This document shows, piece after piece, positions 2,225 through 56,262 of a stretch of 64,000 nt of DNA; within the stretch, counting starts at the first letter, position 1; the number at the start of each line of letters is the position of its first letter. Both the position numbers and the translations under genes were made by a program. The DNA lies in NCBI GenBank assembly GCA_036725605.1, contig DAIMDW010000026.1, positions 832 to 64,831 on the forward strand. Reading direction: 5' to 3'. A model generated the notes under the pieces. It saw only the letters and a program-made list of their open reading frames with translations. It did not search any database and had not been told where the DNA came from. The stretch comes from a bacterium (GTDB lineage Bacteria; Lernaellota; Lernaellaia; Lernaellales; Lernaellaceae).

Positions 2225-2837
2225 TTGCCTTATGCAATCGATCTTCCATTATTATTATCTCATAAGCTCCGATTGCCCTCAAGCTGGCGGACACTGCGGG
2301 TTGGCTGATGCCCAATCGCCCGGCCACCTCAACCTGATTCTCCATTTTTTGATACAAACGAAAAATCGCCATCTGTTTTTCTGTCCACTTCGCTTGTATC
2401 GACAAGAGAAGATTGATCTGGTTTTCCACCAGCCGATCCACCTGGCCCCGATCGCATTCGAGGCCGAACGGCAGCATCGAGTCCTTCAATTCCGCCATGA
2501 TATCGGCGGCACGATGAAATGCCGGCCCGTCCATCGCCGCCACATCCCGCGAGGCGACGCCGACGTCGATGATCCCTTCGACAACAACATAACGCGCCCT
2601 GAAGGGATGAAGCGTTTGCGCGATCTTGCCAACCAGCGAATACAAGAAGGTCGGCCGTATGGTCACCAAACCGAACTCGTCTTTCCCTTTGATCATTTTA
2701 AAGGGCGCTTTGAGGTCTTTGCGAAATTCCCTGTTTATCTCTTTTTTTATGGACGCCAATTTATCCAACAACGGATCGATTTCACCTGTTACTTTTCGCG
2801 AGGCAATCACATCGCCCAACAAAACCAATGCTTTCAT
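2202..2837 (-). CDS. HTH-domain transcriptional regulator, SatD-family-like.
   Basis: N-terminus MKALVLLGDVIASRK with a C-terminal helix-turn-helix (QVEVAGRLGISQPAVSASLR). The overlapping plus ORF 2175..2852 has no motifs. Local GC is lower than the flanks. Confidence 0.5.
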   Translation of the reverse strand: MKALVLLGDVIASRKVTGEIDPLLDKLASIKKEINREFRKDLKAPFKMIKGKDEFGLVTIRPTFLYSLVGKIAQTLHPFRARYVVVEGIIDVGVASRDVAAMDGPAFHRAADIMAELKDSMLPFGLECDRGQVDRLVENQINLLLSIQAKWTEKQMAIFRLYQKMENQVEVAGRLGISQPAVSASLRAIGAYEIIIMEDRLHKAIESLYSR

Positions 2838-2918
2838 CGAATCCTCGTATAAGCAATAATACTTATGTTTTTCATATATAACAATTATTGCTTATATGTC
2901 AAGCGCCGGCCGAAAAAC

Positions 2919-4370
2919 TCACCCCTCCCCCATCTCCTGTTTGACGATCTCGACGACCGGGTCGGCGGGGGGCAGGTTTTGCAGCAAGCGTTGGTAGAGC
3001 GCGTGGGCGCCGGCCGGGTCCTTCAGCCGCTTGGCGCGCAGGCGGGCGGCCTCGAGCAGCGCCTTGACGGCCTGCGGGCCCGCCTGACCGGCCGCGCGTT
3101 CGTACAGGGCCACCGCGCGTTCGTTGTTCCAGTTGTCCTTGTAAAACTGCGCCAGGCGCAACAGCGTCGTCGCGGGCGGCTGATAATCGGCCACCATCGC
3201 GTCGGTTTCCATCAGCACCTCGGCGGCCAGACGCGGATTGTCGACCTCGACCAGATAGCGCATGAAATCATCCGCCTCGGCCTTGGCCGCTACGTGCTCG
3301 CCGCGATCGAGCAGGCCGCGCAGCACCTCCAGCCGTTGCGCCGCGCTCAGCGGCCCGGTCGGCTCGCCGAAATCGGGCGGACGCGTCAACGGAATGTATT
3401 CGCCGCGTTTGAACTTCTCCAGGTCCTCCTCGTCCTCCTCGCGGATCGTCTTGTCGCCGAAGCCGACGATCCGCAGCGCGACCGCCGCCAGCAAGCCGAA
3501 GGCAAAACCGCCGATGTGCGCCCAGTAAGCGACGCGATGCACGTCTTCCGCGCCCAGCGCCACGTAGAAAATCTGGATGAACAGCCACAACGGCAGCACC
3601 ACGAGCGACGGTAGCATTTTCGTGCCCATGCGCACGTGCCAATAAAGCCAGATGAAATATGCGAAGTTGATTTTGATGCGATAGAAGCGGAACAAAAACG
3701 CGCCCATCAACCCGGCGACCGCCCCCGACGCGCCGATCACCGGCACGTTCATCCCGGGGTGCATCAGCACGTGCGTCAGGCCGCCGGCGATCCCCGCCAG
3801 CAGATAAACGCCGGTGAACATCGCCGGACCCCACACGCCTTCGAGCGCAAAGCCGACGAGGAACAGAAACAGGAGATTGAAAATCAGGTGCGACAGCGAA
3901 CCGTGCATAAACATCGAAGTGATCACCGCGACCGGCGTGGGCCGCGCGGGAATCAATCCGTAGCGCTGCAGGAGAAACCGCTCCTGCATTTCGACTTTCA
4001 GCCGCGCGAGTTCCTGAAATCGCGCGAAGAGCGGATCGTCGGCCGGCACGGCTTTTCCCGCCGCAAAGGCCTGCCAGTAATCCTCGATGTTCTTGCCGAG
4101 CTTTCTGTAAACCTCGTTCCAGTTGCCGGCGTCCTTGTCGATCAGCGCGGTGACCAGCCCGTCCTTCTTCTTTTCGTGGTATTGCAAATAGACCTGCACC
4201 TTGAGGTGCTCAAGCTGCTCGTCAAGCTGCCGCTCCTGCCGCACCTGCCGCACCATGATCGCCTGCGTACCGGCAAAAACCAACACGCACAGCACGATCA
4301 ACGCGATGGTCACATAAGGAAACCGGCGGACCGCGCTCTCTTCGTGACCAATGGGGAAAAAGAAAAACAT
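2919..4370 (-). CDS. Rhomboid-family intramembrane serine protease with a C-terminal TPR-like region.
   Basis: Multi-TM core with the catalytic GASGAVAGLMGA (GxSG) and the downstream AHIGGFAFG histidine motif. The C-terminal portion is helical and repeat-like. Confidence 0.85.
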   Translation of the reverse strand: MFFFFPIGHEESAVRRFPYVTIALIVLCVLVFAGTQAIMVRQVRQERQLDEQLEHLKVQVYLQYHEKKKDGLVTALIDKDAGNWNEVYRKLGKNIEDYWQAFAAGKAVPADDPLFARFQELARLKVEMQERFLLQRYGLIPARPTPVAVITSMFMHGSLSHLIFNLLFLFLVGFALEGVWGPAMFTGVYLLAGIAGGLTHVLMHPGMNVPVIGASGAVAGLMGAFLFRFYRIKINFAYFIWLYWHVRMGTKMLPSLVVLPLWLFIQIFYVALGAEDVHRVAYWAHIGGFAFGLLAAVALRIVGFGDKTIREEDEEDLEKFKRGEYIPLTRPPDFGEPTGPLSAAQRLEVLRGLLDRGEHVAAKAEADDFMRYLVEVDNPRLAAEVLMETDAMVADYQPPATTLLRLAQFYKDNWNNERAVALYERAAGQAGPQAVKALLEAARLRAKRLKDPAGAHALYQRLLQNLPPADPVVEIVKQEMGEG

Positions 4371-9740: not shown

Positions 9741-10400
9741 TCAGCGCAACGATTGGCCTGTCCACCATAGTTTTAGCGGAGAAGGAAGGGATCCCTTTCC
9801 GACACCCACGAAATTTTTCCCGACTTCCAAATCGGGACACCCGGAGCCGACAAGCCCCGCAGGGGCGACTGGTATGCCGCCCTCATCCCCGACCCTTCTC
9901 CCACGGGGAGAAGGGAGACCGGGTTGCCTATTTTTAAAAATGCGGGGACACGAAGGAATCGAGTCCCCGATTTTTTCTACCCTCGCCCTCTGGGAGAGGG
10001 TCGGGCGCAGCCCGGGGTGAGGGATTGCCTTCCCGACTTTCGAATTGGAACACCCTGAGCCCCGGAGGGGCGACTGGTCAGTAGCGAAGGGCGGCAGCCC
10101 TGGAAACTGCGACCTACCCAGAACCAACAAGCCCCGGAGGGGCGCAGGAATCTTTGACAATTCGCATCAGATCGGCCACGGCGACTTGCGTATGCGTTGA
10201 AAACGATCGGCTGTTCCGCCGGAGGCGAACATCGCTTGCACCCCTGCGGGGTTTGCTTGAATTTGCCTCGTCTGATTCCAGGGCTAAAAGCCCTTCGCTA
10301 TTGACCTGCGCCCTGCGGGGTGGAAGATCCTGCGCGGAAGTTCATTTCAACGTCACCCGTTTTTTCTTCTCGGAACACCCTAAATCAAAATCGCCTTAGA
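9741..10400. repeat. Dense intergenic repeat cluster with several families, including a nested inverted-repeat element.
   Basis: Contains the hairpin gcggggacacgaaggaatcgagtccccg, a family-B copy and the unit gacttccaaatcgggacaccc...ccccgcaggggcg. The inverted pair 10079–10103 (cagtagcgaagggcggcagccctgg) and 10271–10296 (ccagggctaaaagcccttcgctattg) flanks an about-170-bp core. Listed ORFs here such as 9741..10160 are spurious. Confidence 0.75.
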
Positions 10401-10502: not shown

Positions 10503-10551
10503 GAAAAACCCGCCACATTTGAGCTTGCTCCCGAAGGCGCAGAGGCTTGGC
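10503..10551 (-). terminator. Rho-independent terminator for the AT-rich gene, on the minus strand.
   Basis: Minus-strand reading is cccgccaag...tggcggg followed by tttttc, immediately 3' of the CDS end at 10592. Confidence 0.5.
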
Positions 10552-10591
10552 GGGTATGCTGGGTAAACGTTATAGAATTTTGATAATTCTG

Positions 10592-11317
10592 TCAATTATT
10601 ATCTCCATTATTCTGAATTAATTTTTTTAAATGGTAGTATAAAGGAGTTAACTGCCCTTCAGAGTCTAGCGGACCCATATATTTCCCAGCAAATATTTCA
10701 TAGCACCCTGTTCTTACGATACGAAAAAATAAGCTATCAATTTCATTTTCTGGTATATCAAGTTTAATCTTCAAATCATTTTTAAATTCACCCCAAATAA
10801 CATGTGATCGTTGAGCGTCATTTAGTAATTTATAATCTGTCAATCCATTATTTGGCTCTCTCGGATATTTTATTTTATAAACAGTTTCCGCCCTTGCTTG
10901 CCATTCATCAAGAAGAAAAAGTATGGTCAATTCACGATAGGATAAATCGTCAAGTATCGAAAGATAATCTTCAAACTCATTGACATCATTGATTAGATTT
11001 TCTACGACACTTGAAGAAAGAAGACGTGCAAAAAATCTGATTTTTTCACGTCTACGAGTATGAAGAACCGCTTGTATCGTTTTCATAAAACAGTGAAGAA
11101 AATCCTCTGACTCAATCAATTCTGGAGTTAAGTCAACGTTATTATTTATTAACTCGTCTAAAAACGCTTCAATCCGCTCTCTTGCTATTGTGTCTAATCG
11201 TGATGTTAACCATGCATCGATTGATGATGTGATTGGGAAAAAGGCCATAATTGCTTTTACCCAAGGGTTATCAGTGGGATATTTTTGAAGAAGTTTATCA
11301 AGAGCATCAATCATCAT
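10592..11317 (-). CDS. Hypothetical cytoplasmic protein encoded by an AT-rich island.
   Basis: 241-aa ORF in a roughly 1-kb stretch whose base composition is far more AT-rich than the flanks. No recognisable catalytic motif. It has its own terminator. Confidence 0.6.
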   Translation of the reverse strand: MMIDALDKLLQKYPTDNPWVKAIMAFFPITSSIDAWLTSRLDTIARERIEAFLDELINNNVDLTPELIESEDFLHCFMKTIQAVLHTRRREKIRFFARLLSSSVVENLINDVNEFEDYLSILDDLSYRELTILFLLDEWQARAETVYKIKYPREPNNGLTDYKLLNDAQRSHVIWGEFKNDLKIKLDIPENEIDSLFFRIVRTGCYEIFAGKYMGPLDSEGQLTPLYYHLKKLIQNNGDNN

Positions 11318-18599: not shown

Positions 18600-18990
18600 C
18601 TGGTCCTAAAAAATCGGGGACATGATTTCATCGTGTCCCCGTATTTTCTGGCCCGCCTGCGCTCAAGCTGCGGTGGGACAGGCCCGCCTGCGCGGGCATG
18701 ACGGCAATTCTGTCATCTCGACCGGAGCAAAGCGGAGTGGCAATGTCCGCCAAAGCTTTTTGCGACGGCGGACCTGTCCGCCATAGCCTTGGCGACGGCG
18801 GACCTGTCCGCCATAGCCTTGGCGACGGCGGAAGAGATCCCTTTGTCTGGTCATCCCGCGCCCCAAGAGACTGTCGATAAATGCGTCGACAGGCGACAAA
18901 CAGCCCCGTCAGGGGCGACAGAGGGTAGCCCGGTGCGTGAGCGCCGGGCAAAAACGCCCTAATTTCCCCCAAATCCCGCAGGAGCAACAG
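18600..18990. repeat. Intergenic repeat cluster: second copy of the about-150-bp element, with an internal 30-bp tandem duplication.
   Basis: Hairpin cggggacatgatttcatcgtgtccccg, the block tgtcatctcgaccggagc...ggcggaagagatccctttg matching 1455–1600, and gtccgccatagccttggcgacggcggacct repeated twice at about 18771–18838. Confidence 0.7.
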
Positions 18991-19104: not shown

Positions 19105-19185
19105 ATGAAACATAGGTCCAGGAATTATTCCTGCCAGGGATTCTCTCCAGCGACCATGTTCCCACGGAACAAGACCGCAGCTTTT
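19105..19185. repeat. Family-A palindromic repeat copy.
   Basis: ataggtccaggaattattcctgccagggattctc...catgttcccacggaacaagaccg is the reverse-complement match of 1230–1290. Confidence 0.65.
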
Positions 19186-20466: not shown

Positions 20467-20699
20467 TTTGGTTTCCTACTTTTCATTGAAAATGAGGAAC
20501 AGTCTATTTCACAAACCAACAGAAAAAGTACGGCCAAGGCGCCGGTAACCGAAATGCGGATCATTTCATCCTCCAATGCGGGCGAAGCGGCGCGAGGCTT
20601 CAGCTTCGCGCGATTATTCTACGGGAATAAAATTGAAATGTACATGCTGAAAAACACTGACAAGCCGCACTGCGTTCGGCGTGCCAGCGCCACCCGGCA

Positions 20700-20945
20700 G
20701 GTTATTTGTAGGGGCAACTCCCCGTGGTTGCCCCGGCCTGGGTTGCCCTGGCCTGGGTAGGCACGGGGACCTACCCCTACGATGGTTGCCCTGCCGCTGG
20801 GTAGGCACGGGGACCTACCCCTACAATGGTTGCCCTGGCCAGGATTGCCCTGGCCTGGGTAGGCACGGGGACCTGCCCCTACAATGGTTGCCCCGGCCTG
20901 GATTGCCCTAGCCTGGGTAGGCACGGGGACCTACCCCTACGGCTG
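20700..20945. repeat. Tandem minisatellite, about 4.5 copies of a 44–58-bp unit.
   Basis: The unit gtaggcacggggacctacccctacaatggttgccc(t/c)ggcc(a/t)ggattgccct(g/a)gcctgg repeats head-to-tail with a 15-bp indel between copies. Confidence 0.8.
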
Positions 20946-20975
20946 GCAATGCACTCGAACGCCGGCACTATTGGC

Positions 20976-21160
20976 GTGGGACACTTTTCGCGAAGCGTCC
21001 CACCGTCGATTTTTGCAACATATTGATATCATTGATAAAACATAAAAAATAAGCGTGGGACAAAGTGTCCCATTTGTCCCACTTGGGGCTCCAAAACGTA
21101 CCTGAAAATGCGGGGACACGAAGGAATCACGTCCCCGATTTTCGGAGAAACCGGGACACG
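20976..21160. repeat. Hairpin repeats with a GGGACA core.
   Basis: gtgggacacttttcgcgaagcgtcccac, gtgggacaaagtgtcccatttgtcccac, and gcggggacacgaaggaatcacgtccccg, the last being the same family as 9945 and 26155. Confidence 0.6.
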
Positions 21161-25945: not shown

Positions 25946-26149
25946 GGTGCCCGTCTCAAGCCAGGGCCGCCAACGCTTTCCCCCGCCAGCTATCATATTC
26001 GGTTATTTTCTGAAATAATAGTATATTATTGCCTCATATAAATACCGCAACCGATGACTGTCGCTCAACAATCGGCACGGCTCGCAAATTCGCCAATGAA
26101 ATGCCGTCGAAATAACATCCTGACCGTACCGTAACGCGAACAAAGGGAA

Positions 26150-26466
26150 AAATGCCGGGGCGCGAAGGAATCAACTCCCCGCTTTCTCCGCAAAAATCAC
26201 GAGACACGCAGCAAGTGCATGTCCCGGAGTTTTCGCGAACCGTATCGATCGAGTACATGCCCTCATGTGGCCCGGCCGCCGGCCGAGGGCACACATAATA
26301 AAGGCAAAACATCGGTCCTGGGATTATCCCCGGCACCTTTGGCGGATAGCCAAAGGTGTGGCACACGGAAGAATCCTCGCGCGCGCGGCTCAGCCGCCGG
26401 CCGAAGCTCCACAAAATGAGGGCAAATCATAGGTCCAGGGATTATCCCTGGCAGGAATTATTCCTG
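26150..26466. repeat. Repeat cluster: one hairpin-family copy and three family-A palindromes.
   Basis: gccggggcgcgaaggaatcaactccccgc, then catcggtcctgggattatccccgg, and cataggtccagggattatccctggcaggaattattcctgg. Confidence 0.7.
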
Positions 26467-32141: not shown

Positions 32142-32551
32142 GGACCGGTTATAACGGGAAGCCGCAACGGAGACAATCGCGGTGGGCCGGGCGTGGCTTC
32201 AACCGCCGTAGTGCGTCACGCAGAGATCTTCGATTTTCTCGGAAAAGTTGCCGACCGAATCGGCGATCTCGATGTCGAGTTTCATTTTTCATCATTCTTA
32301 ATCCGCTTTGCGGATACTGCAAAATGGGCCGATGGTCGATCGAGAACATCGATCTGCTCTGACAAACCGAAAAGGAGTTTCCAAACACAGGTCTCTAATA
32401 ACCATTAATATTAGAAGACGAACTGTAAGACAAGGGATTGACTTTTACATATGATCCAATATTTTAGTGAAATTTATTGGGTTGATTATAAATTGATTTA
32501 TATATATCATATTCTCATATCTAGACACATTCAGATGGGAAGGAATGAAAC

Positions 32552-34066
32552 ATGTTTAAAAGGCGTTTATTTTTACGCATATTAGGCGGACTATTTATCA
32601 TAATTGGAGCTTATCTTTGGTTTACAGATGACCGATCATTTTCGTTGAATATTTTTTCTTTTACAATTGAAATCCCAATTTACTTCTTTGTAGCAACTTT
32701 AGGATTATTTCTAGTCTGGGAGCCAAGTTTGATATTTGATTTTCTGGGAAATACTTTTAATTCCGAAAAGATTCTTTCATTTGCGCAGAGGATAGGAGTA
32801 TTTGGTTTAACTGAAGAAAATCCTACACCAGTACAACTCGCAAAATCATTGAAAAGGCAGGTATCAATAGATAACTCTAAAACAGTTTTTTTTGTGCTTA
32901 TTTTGGTTTTTGGAATGTTTTCATTTGTTCCAAAGATTGTCTCAGATAAAATTTCCGATGACGATTTTAAGGACAACTCAAAACAACTAGTAACATTAAT
33001 TCAAGAATCTAGGGTCGACTTCGATTCGGCAGACATGTTCAGACGCTTCATTTTGAACAACAAAAATATATTGTCATCAGAAAAATATTCAAGTTCGGAT
33101 ACGGGAAAGTTATTTTCTTATTTAGAGCGACTTTTTTCACCAGAAATTAGCGACCAAAGAAAATTTGATGAAATTCTAGCAAGAGAAATCTATGGGGAGA
33201 TAAAGGAAAAAGTAAATGCCGACACTCAATTAATCGAATCAGGCCTTTTCGAGATCCCAAAATGTTTAAATGATCCTGTAGAGATGCGATCTACACTTCT
33301 TACTTTTTTTGCTATTGTATGTCAAAAACAAGGGGGGCATGGAAAGCACCTAGATCCATACATATATGCACGACAACTTTTAAATATTGCTTTCAAGGAA
33401 CTTCCTCAAAATGCCAAAGCGCCAGCAACTTATAATGCAATGGGAGTTAATTACGCATCCACATTTAAAAGCTATGGACAATATTTAGAAAGATTTTCTC
33501 GTAATGAGCCAATGAGAACAAAATTTTGCGATGCTATCGGCGAAAAAAAGGCGCTCACACGATTACAACTAGTAAGAAAATCACTTATGTATTTTGAACA
33601 AGCCTTTAAACAGAGCACTAACAACATGATGGAAGCGCGTTATAGAAATAACCACACAGATATGATGATCGAGATTCTTTCATCAGCGCACCTTGATAAT
33701 ATAAACTATTTTAAGGAGATAACCGATCGTGAAGATGAAATTTTTTTAGAAAAACATGTGGCACGACATGGTAACAAAGAAACTCTTTCACGTATTCTTG
33801 AAGAATTAACTACTGAAGTGAATATTGCATTGAAGCTATCGAAAGAACCAGAGATATTTTATACAAGAGCCCAATTATATTCTGTTGGATACAAGATAAA
33901 TGTATCACAATCCTTAAAAATTCAACCTTGGGCCAATGAAACATGGGTGCTAAATAAAATTCATGATGATTTGCAGATCGCAAAATCACTTGGATTGCAA
34001 GAAGAACTTTTTAATATTGACGCATTGAAACGCCTACATGTGGTATCGGATCGACCACTTTTATAA
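32552..34066 (+). CDS. AT-rich-island gene 1: membrane-anchored protein with 2–3 N-terminal TM helices and an about 380-aa helical cytoplasmic domain of unknown function.
   Basis: Hydrophobic segments LFLRILGGLFIIIGAYLWF, IPIYFFVATLGLFLVW and TVFFVLILVFGMFSFV. The rest is charged and helical with no known motif. AT-rich codon usage. Confidence 0.65.
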   Translation: MFKRRLFLRILGGLFIIIGAYLWFTDDRSFSLNIFSFTIEIPIYFFVATLGLFLVWEPSLIFDFLGNTFNSEKILSFAQRIGVFGLTEENPTPVQLAKSLKRQVSIDNSKTVFFVLILVFGMFSFVPKIVSDKISDDDFKDNSKQLVTLIQESRVDFDSADMFRRFILNNKNILSSEKYSSSDTGKLFSYLERLFSPEISDQRKFDEILAREIYGEIKEKVNADTQLIESGLFEIPKCLNDPVEMRSTLLTFFAIVCQKQGGHGKHLDPYIYARQLLNIAFKELPQNAKAPATYNAMGVNYASTFKSYGQYLERFSRNEPMRTKFCDAIGEKKALTRLQLVRKSLMYFEQAFKQSTNNMMEARYRNNHTDMMIEILSSAHLDNINYFKEITDREDEIFLEKHVARHGNKETLSRILEELTTEVNIALKLSKEPEIFYTRAQLYSVGYKINVSQSLKIQPWANETWVLNKIHDDLQIAKSLGLQEELFNIDALKRLHVVSDRPLL

Positions 34067-34075
34067 GGAGATACT

Positions 34076-34909
34076 ATGAATAAAAATCAGGTTTTTAACG
34101 ATACTGTTGAACAAATCCAGCATGATGCCACCAGGCAAATGTTGGCATTAATTCATGGGATATTTATTGTAGCTGACGGGAAAAAAGTGAATAATCCGAA
34201 TGTATTAACAGAGCAGATAAATGAAGATTCGATACATCGTAATTTTGAGAAAATAAAAAATAAATTCATCCACAATTATGAAGTCTTTCCCATATTTGAT
34301 TTTATTTTCAATGGTATTGAAAGATTAAATTTATTATTTATGAACGCTCAAGGATTTTTTCGCCACAAAGAAGAGTATGTTCTTGAAATAAAGAAAATAA
34401 GTGTAACAGATTTGTTATTAGACGTGATTGATTTTTATTCTGGCATTTCGGCGGTTCAAAATATTGATATTTATACTGAGTTTTCAGATACACCTCATAT
34501 TTTAGCTGATTACGGTTTACTTTTTAGAGCATTTTGTAACATTATAGATAATGCTATAAAATATAGTTACTCCAAAGATTCAGCAGATCGTAAGAGGTAT
34601 ATTTATGTTACATGTAGACGACACTCCCAAATGGGACACATAATTATTGAAGTGTCATCATATGGTGTGAAACTTGAAGATGACGAATTGCTGAATTATA
34701 AAATGTTCCAATATGGCGTAAGAGGAGTATATGCGTCTGATCGAGATCGCCACGGGAGCGGGATTGGACTAGCTGAAGTAAAAAGAATTATTAATAGTCA
34801 TGGTGGAAATGTGGATATATTTTTTTCAAAAAAAGAAGGAGAGCCAGGCGGTGTTACTGTATTGAAAGTCGTGCTACCACCTGAAAGTGGAATTAGAAAG
34901 AAGGAATAA
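34076..34909 (+). CDS. AT-rich-island gene 2: soluble histidine-kinase-like ATPase (HisKA_3-like H-box plus HATPase_c) with no sensor domain.
   Basis: Candidate H-box QIQHDATRQMLALIHGI, N-box FCNIIDNAIKYS, G-box DRHGSGIGLAEVKRIINSHGGNV. No TM segments. It starts 10 bp after gene 1. Confidence 0.65.
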   Translation: MNKNQVFNDTVEQIQHDATRQMLALIHGIFIVADGKKVNNPNVLTEQINEDSIHRNFEKIKNKFIHNYEVFPIFDFIFNGIERLNLLFMNAQGFFRHKEEYVLEIKKISVTDLLLDVIDFYSGISAVQNIDIYTEFSDTPHILADYGLLFRAFCNIIDNAIKYSYSKDSADRKRYIYVTCRRHSQMGHIIIEVSSYGVKLEDDELLNYKMFQYGVRGVYASDRDRHGSGIGLAEVKRIINSHGGNVDIFFSKKEGEPGGVTVLKVVLPPESGIRKKE

Positions 34910-35340
34910 TGAGTGAAGACTTTATCACAAACATCAAATTCGCTGCAGATAAAAACGATTTATCACTTACTATATTATGGCTCGACGATGACACCATAGG
35001 AGATACGTTCTTTTTAGATAATGTGCAGGTAGTTACAGCAAAAAGTTGTAAAAGAGCTGATGAAAAATTACATAAAGATGTTGTTTTTTCAGGAGCAGTT
35101 ATTGATATTATTGTACCTCAAGAAGGATGGGGGGAACATTATTACAAATATGCAGGATTGGAATTCGTCAGGTATTTAAGAAAAACATTCGATGATGAAC
35201 TTAAAGTATTTGTTTTGACAAATCAAATTCCATGGGCTTTAAATAAGGCTGATATTATAAACGCAGGAGCAAAAAATGTGCTATTAAAAAAAGATTGTGG
35301 ATTGCGCAACTTATTACCATGTTTTTTCAGTAATGATTGA
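34909..35340 (+). CDS. AT-rich-island gene 3: receiver-like (REC) single-domain protein, possibly degenerate.
   Basis: ILWLDDD (acidic pocket), AVIDIIVPQ (phospho-Asp position), KVFVLTNQ (Thr) and NVLLKKD (Lys) sit in REC-like spacing. Its start overlaps gene 2's stop (ATGA). Confidence 0.5.
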   Translation: MSEDFITNIKFAADKNDLSLTILWLDDDTIGDTFFLDNVQVVTAKSCKRADEKLHKDVVFSGAVIDIIVPQEGWGEHYYKYAGLEFVRYLRKTFDDELKVFVLTNQIPWALNKADIINAGAKNVLLKKDCGLRNLLPCFFSND

Positions 35341-35359
35341 TTGAAAGGATTAAAACATA

Positions 35360-35707
35360 ATGTGTAGAATTTTCATAAGACTTATTAACAAATTTCGTCC
35401 ACGTAAGGGATATTTAAAACGAATTGAGAATTATGAAGAGAAATTTTCCCATCATGGTGAACGCGTGTCGTTAGAGGAAACTGCAAGTGTTCATGTAGCC
35501 AAGCTTGTTCTTTTTCGCAATCCAGAATTCAGGTTGGCCAGTTTACAAACATTGGCTGAACAGGGCTGTCAAGAATGCTTCGCCCCAGCGTTAAAAGATG
35601 CAATCTCAAGTGCAAAAAAATGGCCTCACGAACCTATAGAACACCATGCCTGCCATGTTTTTAATGTTTTAAGCACATACAACAAAGCACATGATAAAGA
35701 ACTTTAG
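35360..35707 (+). CDS. AT-rich-island gene 4: small helical protein of 115 aa, function unknown.
   Basis: It lies 20 bp after gene 3 and has a Cys/His-rich C-terminus (CQECF...HEPIEHHACH). Hpt-like or HEAT-like roles are both speculative. Confidence 0.4.
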   Translation: MCRIFIRLINKFRPRKGYLKRIENYEEKFSHHGERVSLEETASVHVAKLVLFRNPEFRLASLQTLAEQGCQECFAPALKDAISSAKKWPHEPIEHHACHVFNVLSTYNKAHDKEL

Positions 35708-36263
35708 AAATAATGTTTTGTAAAGTCTACGTAATTCATTTGATACGTAAAAGATAACATCTCTCCATACAGTTCACTTTTTCAGGCGATAATTATTTGA
35801 CTCTTCGCTTTTGTTTGTTTCGCCAGTTCGATGGTTTTAATCGGTTATCGGCCCTGATTACGACAATTACGGTAGGGGGAGTTAATAATTGTTGTGATTC
35901 AACTCGGCACCCAACCCCTCTTGCAGCACCTCGACCGATTGATTCATCAAATGTCTTGCGCGGCACAATGTGAATAACTCACTGAGGATTGTACAACTGA
36001 AGAATTCGACAAAACCATGGGAACACAGACAATCGATCAAAAACACCACCGATAATTAATCGGCAAGATGGCAACTAACTCACTTACCTCCTATCTCAAA
36101 TAATCATTTCCATTTCCCGCCCGCCTCCGTTACCCTTTTCACAGCGCCCGGCCTTTCACAAAACTGCGCGGAATCGTTTAAGAATTGGACAGTGCGAAAT
36201 GGAAATGTGGAATAACTCTGTGTTGTTGCGTCGGTTTTTTGCCGCGGTGCGGCGATTTTCTCA

Positions 36264-49085: not shown

Positions 49086-49104
49086 ATCTGCAACCAAAAA
49101 GGAT

Positions 49105-49640
49105 GACCTCATCAGAGGCAATTACGCCAAGTCTTCTGATTTCCGAATTGGAACACCCGGCGCCGACAAGCCCCGCAGGGGCGGAAGGTCAGTAGCGAAG
49201 GGCGAAGCCCTGGAAATGGCGGCTCGCCCAGATCAGGCAACCCCTGACAAGGGGTGTAGGATTTTTTGAAAATTCGTATCAACGAGATTACCAGCACCCC
49301 TTTCAGGGGTTTGTTTTAATTTGGTTCTTTTTATACCAGGGCTGAAGCCCTTCGCTATTGACCTGCGCCCTCCGGGCTTGAAGAACCTTCACATAGATCC
49401 ATTTTTCGTTGGTTGGAGCCCTTCGCTATTGACATGCGCCCCGCAGGCTGGACAATCCAGCGCAGAAATTACTTCGACCTTGTTCGACGTTGCCCGTTTT
49501 TTTCTCGGGACACCCAAAATCAAAATTGCCATCCAGAAAGTTCAGGTACTTTCCAAAGAGAAAACAGGCTGCGCGGAAGTCAGGAAAAGATAACCCCATC
49601 AGGGGCAATAACGCCAAGTCTGATGGGGGGCAAATGAATA
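49105..49640. repeat. Intergenic repeat cluster with nested inverted-repeat architecture.
   Basis: The forward unit at 49139–49215 is ttccgaattggaacaccc...ccccgcaggggcggaaggtcagtagcgaagggcgaagccctgg. Two inverted copies follow at 49338–49385 and 49407–49452 (ccagggctgaagcccttcgctattgacctgcgccc). There is also gcaattacgccaagtct at 49117 and gcaataacgccaagtct at 49605. Confidence 0.75.
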
Positions 49641-53457: not shown

Positions 53458-55626
53458 ATGAGCGAAAAATTGACCGGTCAGATACGCCGCATCGTTTTCC
53501 GCAACGAGAACAACGGCTACGTGATCGCTTCGCTCAAACCGGAAAAGAGCGGTCAACCGGTGACGATCGTGGGCCGCCTGCCCGGCGTGGCCGTCGGCGA
53601 AACGATCGAGTGCGCCGGCCGCTGGGAAACCGACTTTCGCCACGGCCGTCAGTTCCGCGTCGACACGTTCACCGCCCGCCCGCCGACCGACGCCGACACC
53701 ATCCGCCGCTACCTGGGTTCGGGATTGATCAAGGGCATCGGCCCCAAGCTCGCCGGCGAACTGGTCGACCGCTTCGGCGTCAAGACGCTCGAGGTGATCG
53801 AGCGTCAGCCCAAGCGCCTGCGCGAAGTGCCGGGCATCGGCCAGGCGCGCGCCCAGCAGATCACCGACGCCTGGCGTGAAAGCCGGGACATCCGCGAGAT
53901 CGGCCTGCTGCTGGAAAAGGCCGGCGCGCCGCGCCACCTCGTACTGCGCGTGCGCCAGCGCTTCGGCGAACAGGCCGCCGACGTCGTGCGGCACGATCCG
54001 TACCGGCTGGTCGCCGAGGTGCGCGGCATCGGCTTTCTCACCGCCGACCGCATCGCCCGCGGACTGGGCGTCGCCGAGGACGATCCGGCGCGGCTGCGCG
54101 CGGGGTTGCTGCACACGTTGAACCTGGCCGCCGAGGACGGGCACACGGCGTTGGCGCTGGATACGCTGATCGCCGAAGCCGCGCGGTTGCTGCAAGCGCC
54201 GCCGGAAAAGCTGGACCCCGAGGTCGAACGGCTCATCGCCGCCGGGCACGCGCGCCGCGAGATGCTTGACGGGCAGATCGTGTTGTCGCCGACCGGCCTG
54301 GCGCTGGCCGAACGGCGGCTGGCCGCGGCGATCGTCGGCATTCAACGCGCCGCCGATCGCTTCCGATCGATCAACCGCGACAAGGCCGTCGCCTGGGTGC
54401 AAAAGCGCTTGAACATCGAACTGACCGAGCGTCAGCGCGAGGCCGCCGTCGACTCCATCGAGCAACCGCTGCTGGTCGTCACCGGCGGGCCGGGCACCGG
54501 CAAGACGACCATCGTGCGCTCCATCTGCGAAATGGTCGAGGCGATGAAGCGCACCGTCGCGCTGTGCGCGCCCACCGGCCGCGCCGCCAAGCGTCTGGCC
54601 GAAACCACCGGCCGCGAGGCCAAGACGGTGCACCGGTTGCTGGAGATCAACCCGGCGAAACACGAGTTCACCTACAACGCCGACAACCCGCTGGCGCATG
54701 ATCTGGTCGTCTGCGACGAGGCCAGCATGCTCGACGCCCCGCTGGCCGCGCACCTGGCCGAGGCTATCCCGCCCGGCGCGCACCTGGTGCTGGTCGGCGA
54801 CGTCGACCAGTTGCCCAGCATCGGCCCGGGCAACGTGCTGGCCGATCTGATCAACTCGGAGCGCGTGCACGTCGTGCGGCTGGACAAGATCTTCCGCCAG
54901 GCCGCGCAAAGCCGTATCGTGCTCAGCGCGCACGATATCCGCCAGGGTCGTCTACCCGAACTGGCTCCGACCAAGGACGGCGATTTCTTTTTCATCGAGC
55001 AGGACGATCCGGTCGCGTTGCGCGAGCTGGTGGTCGATCTGGCCGCGCGGCGGCTGCCGCAAACCTACAACCTCGATCCGCTCGGCGAGATCATGGTGCT
55101 CGCGCCGATGCACAAGGGCGAGGCCGGCGTGGCCGCGCTCAACGAGGCTCTGCGCGCGCGGTTGAATCCGGCGGGCGCGGAGTTGATTTTCGGCGAGCGC
55201 TCGTATCGCCTGGGCGACAAGGTGATGCAGACGGCCAACGATTACGACCGCGAAATCTACAACGGCGACATCGGGCGCGTCGCGCGCGTCGACGAGGCGC
55301 ACAAGGAGATCGTCGTGGATTTCGACGGCCGGATGGTGGGCGCGCGCGAGGGCGAACTGGCCGACCTGGTACACGCCTACGCGGTGTCCATTCACAAGTC
55401 GCAGGGCAGCGAATACCCGTGCGTGATCGTGCCGCTGCACACGCAGCACTTCATTTTGCTGGCGCGCAACCTGCTGTATACGGCGGTTACCCGCGGCAAA
55501 AAGCTGGTCGTGGTGTGCGGTTCGCGCCGGGCGCTGGCGCGGGCGGTGGAGAACGACGCCGCGCGGCATCGCACGACCTTGCTGATCAATTACCTCGAAT
55601 CGGCCAAACCCGGCCGCTTGTTGTAA
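53458..55626 (+). CDS. recD2: RecD2-type ATP-dependent DNA helicase (SF1B).
   Basis: N-terminal OB/HhH region, Walker A VVTGGPGTGKTT, and VLVGDVDQLPSIGPGNVL. The C-terminal SH3-like and helicase motifs (VSIHKSQGSEYP; LLYTAVTRGKK) are present. Confidence 0.9.
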   Translation: MSEKLTGQIRRIVFRNENNGYVIASLKPEKSGQPVTIVGRLPGVAVGETIECAGRWETDFRHGRQFRVDTFTARPPTDADTIRRYLGSGLIKGIGPKLAGELVDRFGVKTLEVIERQPKRLREVPGIGQARAQQITDAWRESRDIREIGLLLEKAGAPRHLVLRVRQRFGEQAADVVRHDPYRLVAEVRGIGFLTADRIARGLGVAEDDPARLRAGLLHTLNLAAEDGHTALALDTLIAEAARLLQAPPEKLDPEVERLIAAGHARREMLDGQIVLSPTGLALAERRLAAAIVGIQRAADRFRSINRDKAVAWVQKRLNIELTERQREAAVDSIEQPLLVVTGGPGTGKTTIVRSICEMVEAMKRTVALCAPTGRAAKRLAETTGREAKTVHRLLEINPAKHEFTYNADNPLAHDLVVCDEASMLDAPLAAHLAEAIPPGAHLVLVGDVDQLPSIGPGNVLADLINSERVHVVRLDKIFRQAAQSRIVLSAHDIRQGRLPELAPTKDGDFFFIEQDDPVALRELVVDLAARRLPQTYNLDPLGEIMVLAPMHKGEAGVAALNEALRARLNPAGAELIFGERSYRLGDKVMQTANDYDREIYNGDIGRVARVDEAHKEIVVDFDGRMVGAREGELADLVHAYAVSIHKSQGSEYPCVIVPLHTQHFILLARNLLYTAVTRGKKLVVVCGSRRALARAVENDAARHRTTLLINYLESAKPGRLL

Positions 55627-55649
55627 AGATTTTCGACGCCAATTTCGGT

Positions 55650-56262
55650 TAAAATCATTTCTTTCCTGACTTCCGCACGCCCTGTTTTTTATTTTGTAGG
55701 TGCTCGAAATCACAAGACGGCGAGTTCGGTTTAGGGTGTCCTGAGAAGAAAATCGGGCGAAGACGAACAATGTTGAAATGATTTTCTGCACAGGATCCTC
55801 AAGCCCGCAGGGCGTAGGTCCGTAGCGAAGGGCTTTTAGCCCTGGAATCAGAAGAGGCAAATTCAAGCAAACCCCGCAGGGGTGCCGGTGATGCCAAACC
55901 ATCTGTCCCTGCAATAACACCTCGGTGGCACTGATACGCCGAACGAAGTGAGGGGTATCAGTGTTTTATTTTAACACTGACAAACTCGCTCACGATGTTC
56001 ACTCGTGTATCAGTGCCACCGCTTATGAAAGATTCCTTCACCCCTTGTCAGGGGTTGGACGGTCTGGGTGGGCCGTGGTTTCCAGGGCTTCGCCCTTCGC
56101 TACTGACCTTCCGCCCCTCCGGGGCGTATCGGCTCCAGGTGTCCCAATTCGGAAGTCAGGCGCACGACCTTGCTGATCAATTACCTCGAATCGGCCAAAC
56201 CCGGCCGCTTGTTGTAGAAATTTTCGACAGCTTTTTCGCTTAAAAATCATTTATTTAGCAAA
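55650..56262. repeat. Composite repeat insert flanked by an about-100-bp direct duplication of the recD2 3' end.
   Basis: 55566–55665 and 56157–56262 are near-identical (cgcacgaccttgctgatcaattacctcgaatcggccaaacccggccgcttgttgta...attttcgac...ttaaaa.tcattt). The insert has a forward family unit at 55800–55850 and an inverted unit at 56082–56150. The outer ends are cctgacttccg and cggaagtcagg. Confidence 0.75.

Follow-up and report, generated by a model that had tools for sequence, protein, structure and literature searches.

The 64-kb window analysed here (the whole stretch of DNA under study, 64,000 nucleotides of contig DAIMDW010000026.1 from a bacterial metagenome-assembled genome, MAG) carries three intergenic copies of a composite repeat, called A, B and C, in which the ends of an IS1634-family insertion sequence (IS) enclose an interior derived from a Y1 transposase gene and its repetitive extragenic palindrome (REP)-like units. 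Copy A lies 3' of smpB, copy B between a porin gene and alaS, and copy C, which is inverted, between a recD2-like helicase gene and a gene encoding an outer-membrane beta-barrel protein (OMP). A first-pass annotation, made from the sequence letters, had proposed that the same composite unit recurs at three loci, with a forward arm opposite an inverted arm at each and a small hairpin in the core. The recurrence is real: the 16-mer GTCMRTAGCGAAGGGC occurs seven times in the window, always within loci A, B and C, with 0.18 occurrences expected, and a 22-mer from the left end occurs three times versus none expected. Blastn and a repeat search link A (10032-10395), B (49136-49587) and C (56160-55662, inverted) at 74–89% identity, and the common ends of the three copies were defined by three-way alignment. 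The facing arms are likewise present in all three copies, and the small hairpin was found in A and C (Table 1). The unit had nevertheless been drawn too short, as the copies extend to an 11-bp terminal inverted repeat (TIR), CCTGACTTCCG / CGGAAGTCAGG, which takes the form CCTGAyTTCCG ... CGGAAGTCAGG at the termini of B and C. As for the partial copies previously placed at 9820-9930, the segment 9817-9873 belongs to the family (89% identical to 49138-49183 and 86% to 56160-56112 by blastn), whereas 9874-10030 is a different repeat.

The coding capacity of the three copies is limited to chance open reading frames (ORFs), and there is no transposase ORF within them or anywhere in the window. The elements stand in both orientations relative to the adjacent genes, frequently directly past terminators. 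Deletion variants of the same types are found at other loci and in other genomes: the A type in L051, and the B type in L083, L125 and L139, within different flanks. The copy C locus is also represented in the metagenome contig L122 (99.6% identical). A scan of a genome collection with the 16-mer, a pattern too short for the purpose since about 95 of the 108 loci were chance matches, placed real copies in three unclassified MAGs only (DAIPLW01, DAINPV01 and CAXXWT01).

Table 1. Coordinates of the partial copy, of copies A, B and C with their flanking duplications, and of the duplications on two Persicobacter plasmids.
Feature	Positions	Strand	Remarks
Partial copy	9817-9873	+	IS-type left end CCCGACTTCCA, box GGGACACCC at 9834-9842, first small hairpin; truncated by unrelated repeat 9874-10030
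Copy A, whole element	10032-~10449	+	left end well defined, right end decayed
Copy A, IS1634-type left end	10032-10060	+	TIR homologue CCCGACTTTCG at 10032-10042; box GGAACACCC at 10047-10055
Copy A, left REP-like arm	10059-10103	+	hairpin a GCCCCGGAGGGGC, linker, GTAG head at 10081-10084, hairpin b AGGGC-ggca-GCCCT
Copy A, Y1 transposase gene remnant	10148-10236	-	internally deleted; start codon (CAT on +) at 10230-10232; 16 codons recognisable
Copy A, small hairpin ACCCCTGCGGGGT	10240-10252	+	in intact units directly upstream of the tnpA start codon
Copy A, right REP-like arm	10278-10322	-	inverted relative to the left arm
Copy A, IS1634-type right-end segment	10372-10449	+	box GGAACACCC, then decayed terminus
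Copy B, left target-site duplication	49098-49134	.	abuts the element end; 32/37 identical to 49585-49621
Copy B, whole element	49135-49584	+	450 bp; TIR TCTGATTTCCG ... CGGAAGTCAGG
Copy B, boxes	49150-49158 and 49507-49515	+	IS right end 49507-49584
Copy B, REP-like arms	49170-49213 (left); 49337-49379 (right)		partial tandem second right arm at 49417-49450
Copy B, right target-site duplication	49585-49621	.	
Copy C, first target-site duplication	55570-55664	.	holds the last 57 nt and stop codon of the recD2-like gene (53458-55626)
Copy C, whole element	55665-56160	-	496 bp, inverted; IS right end 55665-55742, IS left end 56133-56160
Copy C, REP-like arms	55803-55845 and 56082-56125		facing (forward/inverted)
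Copy C, hairpins	55870-55885 and 56040-56055		pre-tnpA and post-tnpA, respectively
Copy C, tnpA 5' remnant	from ATG at 55890		~33 nt, decayed
Copy C, nested small inverted-repeat element	55924-56020		unrelated
Copy C, second target-site duplication	56161-56256	.	near the ancestral sequence of the empty sites
Persicobacter duplication, L166	680-1085 / 2737-3142		406 bp
Persicobacter duplication, L167	1053-1085 / 2737-2769		33 bp

IS1634-type ends and long target duplications

Y1 (IS200/IS605) transposition leaves no terminal inverted repeats and no target duplications (Nunvar 2010), and the ends of the unit therefore needed another source. When metagenome contigs were scanned for exact matches to the left end, 35 loci were obtained; nine of these are complete elements of 1640–1684 bp with matching termini and a 506–520-aa ORF on the opposite strand. 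This ORF scores 367 bits (cut-off 100; E 1.5e-109) with the NCBIfam model transpos_IS1634 (NF033559) and also matches PF01609; distant plasmid homologues, at no more than 47% identity, are independently annotated as IS1634 family. The window elements can be aligned with these ISs over their left 24–29 nt (CCTGACTTCCGAATTGGGACACCCGGAG, 29 nt) and their right ~80 nt. A GGGACACCC box is present in each aligned end, the right segment spanning from the box to ...CGGAAGTCAGG, and the left and right ends of the ISs were aligned with copies B and C and with those of L083 and L130. The nearest ISs to the window elements are those of the L119/L138/L145 subgroup. The termini of both the ISs and the window elements fit the IS1634 family end consensus, C-----YT (PMC2266710). 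In copy A, the left end is 91% identical to positions 4–26 of the full-length ISs L131 and L145. The right end is decayed and is predicted to lie 77 nt beyond the box GGAACACCC (10372-10380), with GGAAGGATG there instead of GGAAGTCAGG; this box and the next ~25 nt align with B and C, and the box region also matches L119 1565-1581.

Copies B and C are bracketed by direct repeats that are specific to each locus and abut the element ends (37 nt for B, 95/96 nt for C). Copies in other genomes are similarly flanked, by repeats of ~48 nt in L083 and of 55 nt, 54 of them identical, in L130. For copy C, the two repeats are identical at 87 of 96 positions; one of the differences converts the stop codon TAG to TAA, and no change is seen in the 57 nt of pseudo-coding sequence in the right copy. 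The recD2 protein (HPQ71063.1) falls in a cluster with close variants, and four related contigs (92–93% nucleotide identity) have a recD2-OMP gap of only ~130 nt. Alignment showed that in these four relatives the empty C site is a single contiguous 96-nt sequence, and by blastn L151 5113-5208 matches both of the window copies that flank the 496-bp element. An empty site with one copy of the 96-nt sequence proves that copy C is an insertion accompanied by a long target duplication. The earlier reading of the unit as a non-autonomous element similar to miniature inverted-repeat transposable elements (MITEs) was therefore correct, given the TIRs, the target-site duplications and the empty site in related strains. 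The insertion of copy C is later than the split from the ~93%-identical strains. The copies are nonetheless old relics, as indicated by their divergence (74–86% alike) and by the decay of their duplications to 86–91% identity.

Long duplications also accompany the autonomous relatives. The direct repeats of IS1634 and IS1549 range from 8 to 514 bp and are without an explanatory model, the norm in the family being 5–6 bp (PMC2266710). Full-length IS copies on long contigs are flanked by perfect duplications of 26 bp (L163) and 80 bp (L165), and on the finished Persicobacter psychrovividus plasmids pPP1 and pPP7 two copies of one IS1634-family element have perfect duplications of 406 and 33 bp. 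Every duplication seen opens with an A or an A-rich run adjoining the ...CAGG end, and no helical periodicity was found in the duplication lengths (26, 33, 37, 48, 55, 80, 96 and 406). The transposase clade is abundant, with at least 8000 homologues at E <1e-50 in several phyla. As long duplications occur in this IS clade, the 37–96-nt repeats around the window elements are its expected signature.

Y1 transposase and REP-like units in the interior

In L098, a contig of a related MAG, an ORF fills the space between the inverted arms. The intact homologue (L098, L109) matches Pfam Y1_Tnp (E 1.2e-24); the protein passes the NCBIfam model transpos_IS200 (78.6 bits, cut-off 55) and fails the model for REP-associated tyrosine transposases (RAYTs), NF047646 REP_Tyr_transpos (22 bits, cut-off 80). 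Its closest solved relatives in a PDB sequence search are the TnpA proteins of ISDra2, Sulfolobus and IS608, with E. coli TnpA-REP not among them. The first-pass annotation had suggested a link with IS200/IS605 transposases of the TnpB type. The interior does come from an IS200-like unit, but the enzyme concerned is a Y1 TnpA and not TnpB, and the ends and duplications are those of an IS1634-family DDE transposase.

Full-length Y1 homologues of 148 aa were recovered and their loci read, and the gene was always found between inverted units of one design: (i) a 4–6-bp hairpin (hairpin a), (ii) the linker GGTCAGTAG with a GTAG head, (iii) CGA and (iv) a second hairpin, AGGGC-loop-GCCCT (hairpin b). 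REPs consist of a GT(A/G)G head and a palindrome, and a GTAG head is typical of them (Nunvar 2010). The gene is thus flanked by inverted REP units in L109, L110, L114 and L115, while only the arms remain in the window. Tandem REP arrays, often upstream of tnpA, comprise six units in L110, four in L098 and two in copy B. A direct tally of the stems gave compensatory variants for hairpin a (GCCCC/GGGGC, GCCC/GGGC, ATCCC/GGGAT and ACCCCC/GGGGGT) and, in the case of hairpin b, AGGGC/GCCCT and AGGAT/ATCCT. The stems were counted directly because a MAFFT alignment displaced hairpin a, by one or two columns, from one sub-class to another. Judging from these stems, both REP hairpins are maintained through compensatory change. 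The small hairpin ACCCCTGCGGGGT of copy A also precedes the ATG in L109 (2979-2995) and in L110, and the hairpin located directly upstream of tnpA in intact units is similar to the known stem-loops of IS200.

In the window copies the gene has been lost through three different internal deletions, which left 16 codons in A, almost nothing in B and ~33 nt of the 5' end in C. The remnant in copy A was recognised by tblastn (Y1 residues 61–76 versus 10200-10153 on the minus strand, 81% identity, E 7e-4) and backed by DNA comparison with the intact gene of L098 and L109. The deletion junction of copy B, near 49283-49292, is identical in L083, L125 and L139 at other loci. Since the same deletion variants occur in different flanks, the gene-less forms spread after the deletions had arisen. 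Two diverged copies of the Y1 gene are present on one 569-kb contig of a relative, and the 64-kb window contains seven REP units. L110 holds an intact Y1 gene with an IS left end adjoining the downstream REP, whereas in L114 and L115, from a more distant relative, the Y1/REP unit is without IS ends. This shows that the two layers can be separated and that their fusion is specific to this lineage.

When Rfam was searched at permissive thresholds, the only relevant matches were to Acido-Lenti-1 (RF01687; Weinberg 2010). The REP arms of the window score 16.8–21.7 bits with this family, under its gathering threshold of 37 bits (the highest in copy A, 10058-10102 on the minus strand, 21.7 bits). 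The window also contains a true match, 18902-18948 on the minus strand (38.5 bits), whose opposite strand shows, in order, a hairpin of 5 bp, a linker, GTAG and a palindrome of 8 bp; it is thus a REP of the same design. Like the window arms, RF01687 reads on the opposite strand as a 5-bp hairpin, linker, (G)TAG and palindrome; unlike them, it has a different and longer (8 bp) second hairpin and is filed by Rfam as a small RNA (sRNA) and not as a DNA repeat. In the Lentisphaeria contig L159, the Y1 gene has five tandem 71-nt units upstream and one downstream (1608-1938; 2553-2598), each scoring 35 bits on RF01687. The seed sequences of the family include copies 200 nt apart on one contig (Weinberg 2010). 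Rather than an RNA gene, RF01687 may represent a DNA repeat associated with Y1 transposases, in which case at least one Rfam "sRNA" family would need a database correction. A further unit of RF01687 type is listed at about 5400-5450 in L104.

Origin of the composite and alternative accounts

We consider it very probable that A, B and C all represent one chimeric non-autonomous element, a MITE or decayed mobile insertion cassette in which IS1634-family ends surround a decayed Y1/REP unit, and which was mobilised in trans by an IS1634-family transposase. A DDE transposase of this family, encoded elsewhere, would bind the terminal repeats and the subterminal boxes and insert the element into intergenic DNA; the target strands would be cut tens of bases apart, and gap repair would then yield long direct repeats of variable length. 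The cognate enzyme was presumably once encoded in this genome. The REP hairpins could serve as single-strand DNA substrates of the Y1 enzyme, which would explain the tandem REP arrays upstream of tnpA. Tentatively, and with rather less than even confidence, we propose that the two systems were not paired by accident: a RAYT-like Y1/REP module would have been captured between IS1634 ends and would now travel as cargo, so that in this lineage the DDE transposase seeds REPs at new sites, with long duplications, and the Y1 enzyme amplifies them locally only afterwards. Linked to this proposal, RF01687 would be the REP-type DNA hairpin of this Y1 clade and not an RNA gene.

Several observations weigh against a chimeric element moved by an IS1634-family enzyme. 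In the 64-kb window, tblastn identified no IS1634-family transposase gene and no DDE match. An element in which both IS ends enclose an intact Y1 gene was not found, and the progenitor is one that we infer. For copy A, no clear target duplication was found, its right end being decayed and its left flank occupied by another repeat. For copy B, no empty site was found in relatives, in which the porin-alaS spacer has diverged and is without the target sequence. No duplication was detected for eight full-length ISs on metagenome contigs, including L131, which has 1.2-kb flanks on both sides; the seven others have a flank much shorter than 1.2 kb on one side or both. Finally, the ~8 differences between the copy C duplicates are confined to the left copy, where they all fall within the 38 nt of non-coding tail (55627-55664 versus 56218-56256). 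This pattern is not the one predicted by neutral decay.

A different account is that inverted REP doublets were moved as single-stranded hairpins by the Y1 enzyme alone, as in systems of REP doublets forming hairpins (REPINs) and RAYTs (Nunvar 2010; Bertels & Rainey 2011; Ton-Hoang 2012), and that the IS-like termini are incidental. The interior does share with these systems a Y1 gene between inverted, GTAG-headed REP units, palindromes under compensatory change, and the tandem arrays of L110, L098 and copy B, which are similar to bacterial interspersed mosaic elements. However, the unit ends exactly at an 11-bp TIR common to a DDE IS and is bordered by 37–96-nt duplications, and Y1 enzymes make neither; the protein is of the IS200 type, failing the RAYT model and passing the IS200 model; and the existence of the Y1/REP unit without IS ends in L114 and L115 shows that the layers are separable. 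In further contrast to REPIN-RAYT systems, each REP unit has an extra upstream hairpin, and the unit is embedded between DDE-IS ends in this lineage. The presence of at least two copies of the gene on one contig of a relative may be another difference, as RAYT genes are single-copy and inherited vertically, in genomes with hundreds of REPs. As an account of the dispersal of the whole unit, movement by Y1 alone is largely refuted, and we consider it very unlikely.

Still less credible is the suggestion, made in the first-pass annotation, that the repeats are structured sRNAs; the same applies to RNA hairpins acting in cis (terminators or stabilisers, for example), in either case repeated for their usefulness as RNA. 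Several conserved GC-rich hairpins with compensatory changes, the weak Acido-Lenti-1 matches and the intergenic position of the elements, often directly past terminators, would agree with it. However, no Rfam family reaches its threshold within the loci, and the one weakly matched family itself forms tandem repeats around a Y1 transposase gene and so resembles a DNA repeat. Moreover, copies occur in both orientations relative to the adjacent genes, the cores diverge through deletions and a nested insertion, close relatives are without the insertion and hence do without such an RNA, and the hairpin directly before tnpA in intact units is similar to those of IS200. Segmental duplication or recombination debris without transposition would fit the variation between strains at locus A, which is a tandem duplication of neighbouring repeats (the copy A left flank has an extra tandem copy in L162, a strain 99.3% identical), and the mosaic of several repeat families at 9800-10030, but it is practically excluded by the sharp termini common to the copies, the locus-specific duplication flanking each site, the clean empty site and the unrelated gene contexts in several genomes, and for B and C the filled/empty comparison and the abutting duplications refute it.

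Two other candidates were rejected. A diversity-generating retroelement does not account for the direct repeats of copy C, which are 100% identical in the coding part and whose mismatches are without adenine specificity; a reverse transcriptase is also absent. Because the flanking repeat differs from locus to locus, site-specific integration at an att site was discarded too.

The chimeric element can also be compared with its closest known counterparts. The terminal and subterminal sequences match ISs with an IS1634-family equivalog transposase, and, as in IS1634 and IS1549 (Vilei 1999, Plikaytis 1998; PMC2266710), the ends fit the family consensus and the direct repeats are long and variable, 26–406 bp here versus 8–514 bp in the literature. 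Unlike these ISs, the window copies are without a transposase, their interior is unrelated to the IS and Y1/REP-derived, and they reside in an unclassified MAG instead of Mycoplasma or Mycobacterium. Like MITEs and mobile insertion cassettes, the copies have IS-type TIRs, no cognate transposase inside, target-site duplications, a dispersed distribution and deletion sub-families. The passenger, however, is here another transposase unit, unrelated to the IS and with repeats of its own, and the duplications reach 37–96 nt compared to the usual few bases in MITEs. The IS200/IS605-derived MITEs known as palindrome-associated transposable elements (PATEs) are likewise gene-less derivatives that retain the hairpins of a Y1-transposase element. 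PATEs are nevertheless without TIRs or target duplications and carry their hairpins in the same orientation on one strand, whereas the present element has inverted arms, a TIR and long duplications, and its dispersal bears the marks of a DDE enzyme.

The element belongs to known kinds, being an IS1634-family MITE with a REP/Y1 interior; it is noteworthy for its chimeric build, for the clean natural evidence of long duplication and for the Acido-Lenti-1 lead. A literature search for IS1634-derived MITEs found no relevant paper. The element clearly illustrates how the repeat system of one transposon family can be carried by a different family. The duplication mechanism of IS1634 and IS1549 has been without a model since 1998–99, and the same habit is now seen in a large and environmentally abundant clade, including on finished plasmids; as gene-less derivatives inherit it, many natural insertion junctions can be mined. 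For annotation, duplicated gene 3' ends or terminators around small repeats can be transposition scars, and are not necessarily recombination sites or diversity-generating repeats.

Neighbouring repeats and other features

The repeat that truncates the partial copy, module P (9874-10030), is a small repeat with imperfect inverted ends, CCCTCAYCCCCG...CCCTYCTCCCA. A partial copy lies at 1300-1344, and others were found in L014 (5865-5720), L001, L051 and L162. Module P lies directly against the left end of the main element at five sites. Its window copy sits between two versions of that left end, which form a 57-nt duplication with 75% identity (9817-9873 / 10030-10078), and L162 has an extra tandem copy. 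One of the four copies of a hairpin repeat family, AAAATGCGGGGACACGAAGGAATC..GTCCCCGATTTT, is located within module P; these copies occur in both orientations (9937-9976, 18608-18651, 21101-21142 and 26148-26186). The element nested in the core of copy C, at the former tnpA, has 14-bp perfect inverted ends, GGTGGCACTGATAC / GTATCAGTGCCACC, and relatives at 20651-20694 in the window and at 883-983 and 1101-1201 in L102.

More short tandem or dispersed intergenic repeats are found between 18.5 and 26.5 kb (20706-20951, 18768-18837, 19108-19142 and 26307-26459). These include 58-nt tandem units (20725-20951), GCGGACCTGTCCGCCATAGCCTTGGCGACGGCGGA, which occurs twice, and AAwCATAGGTCCAGGrATTATyCCTG. 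The genome is exceptionally rich in small repeats.

Beyond copy A, an abiF RNA motif was identified by Rfam at 10508-10554 on the minus strand (37.2 bits, threshold 37), downstream of a 240-aa gene on the same strand (10592-11317), which is unannotated and without Pfam or PADLOC match. Finally, a low-GC island at ~32400-36000 (33–41% GC versus ~63% elsewhere) looks horizontally acquired. It carries three ORFs on the same strand, encoding a 504-aa protein with no match, a 277-aa GHKL ATPase that matches the PADLOC candidate-defence model PDC-M43B (7.5e-14), and a 143-aa protein with no match.

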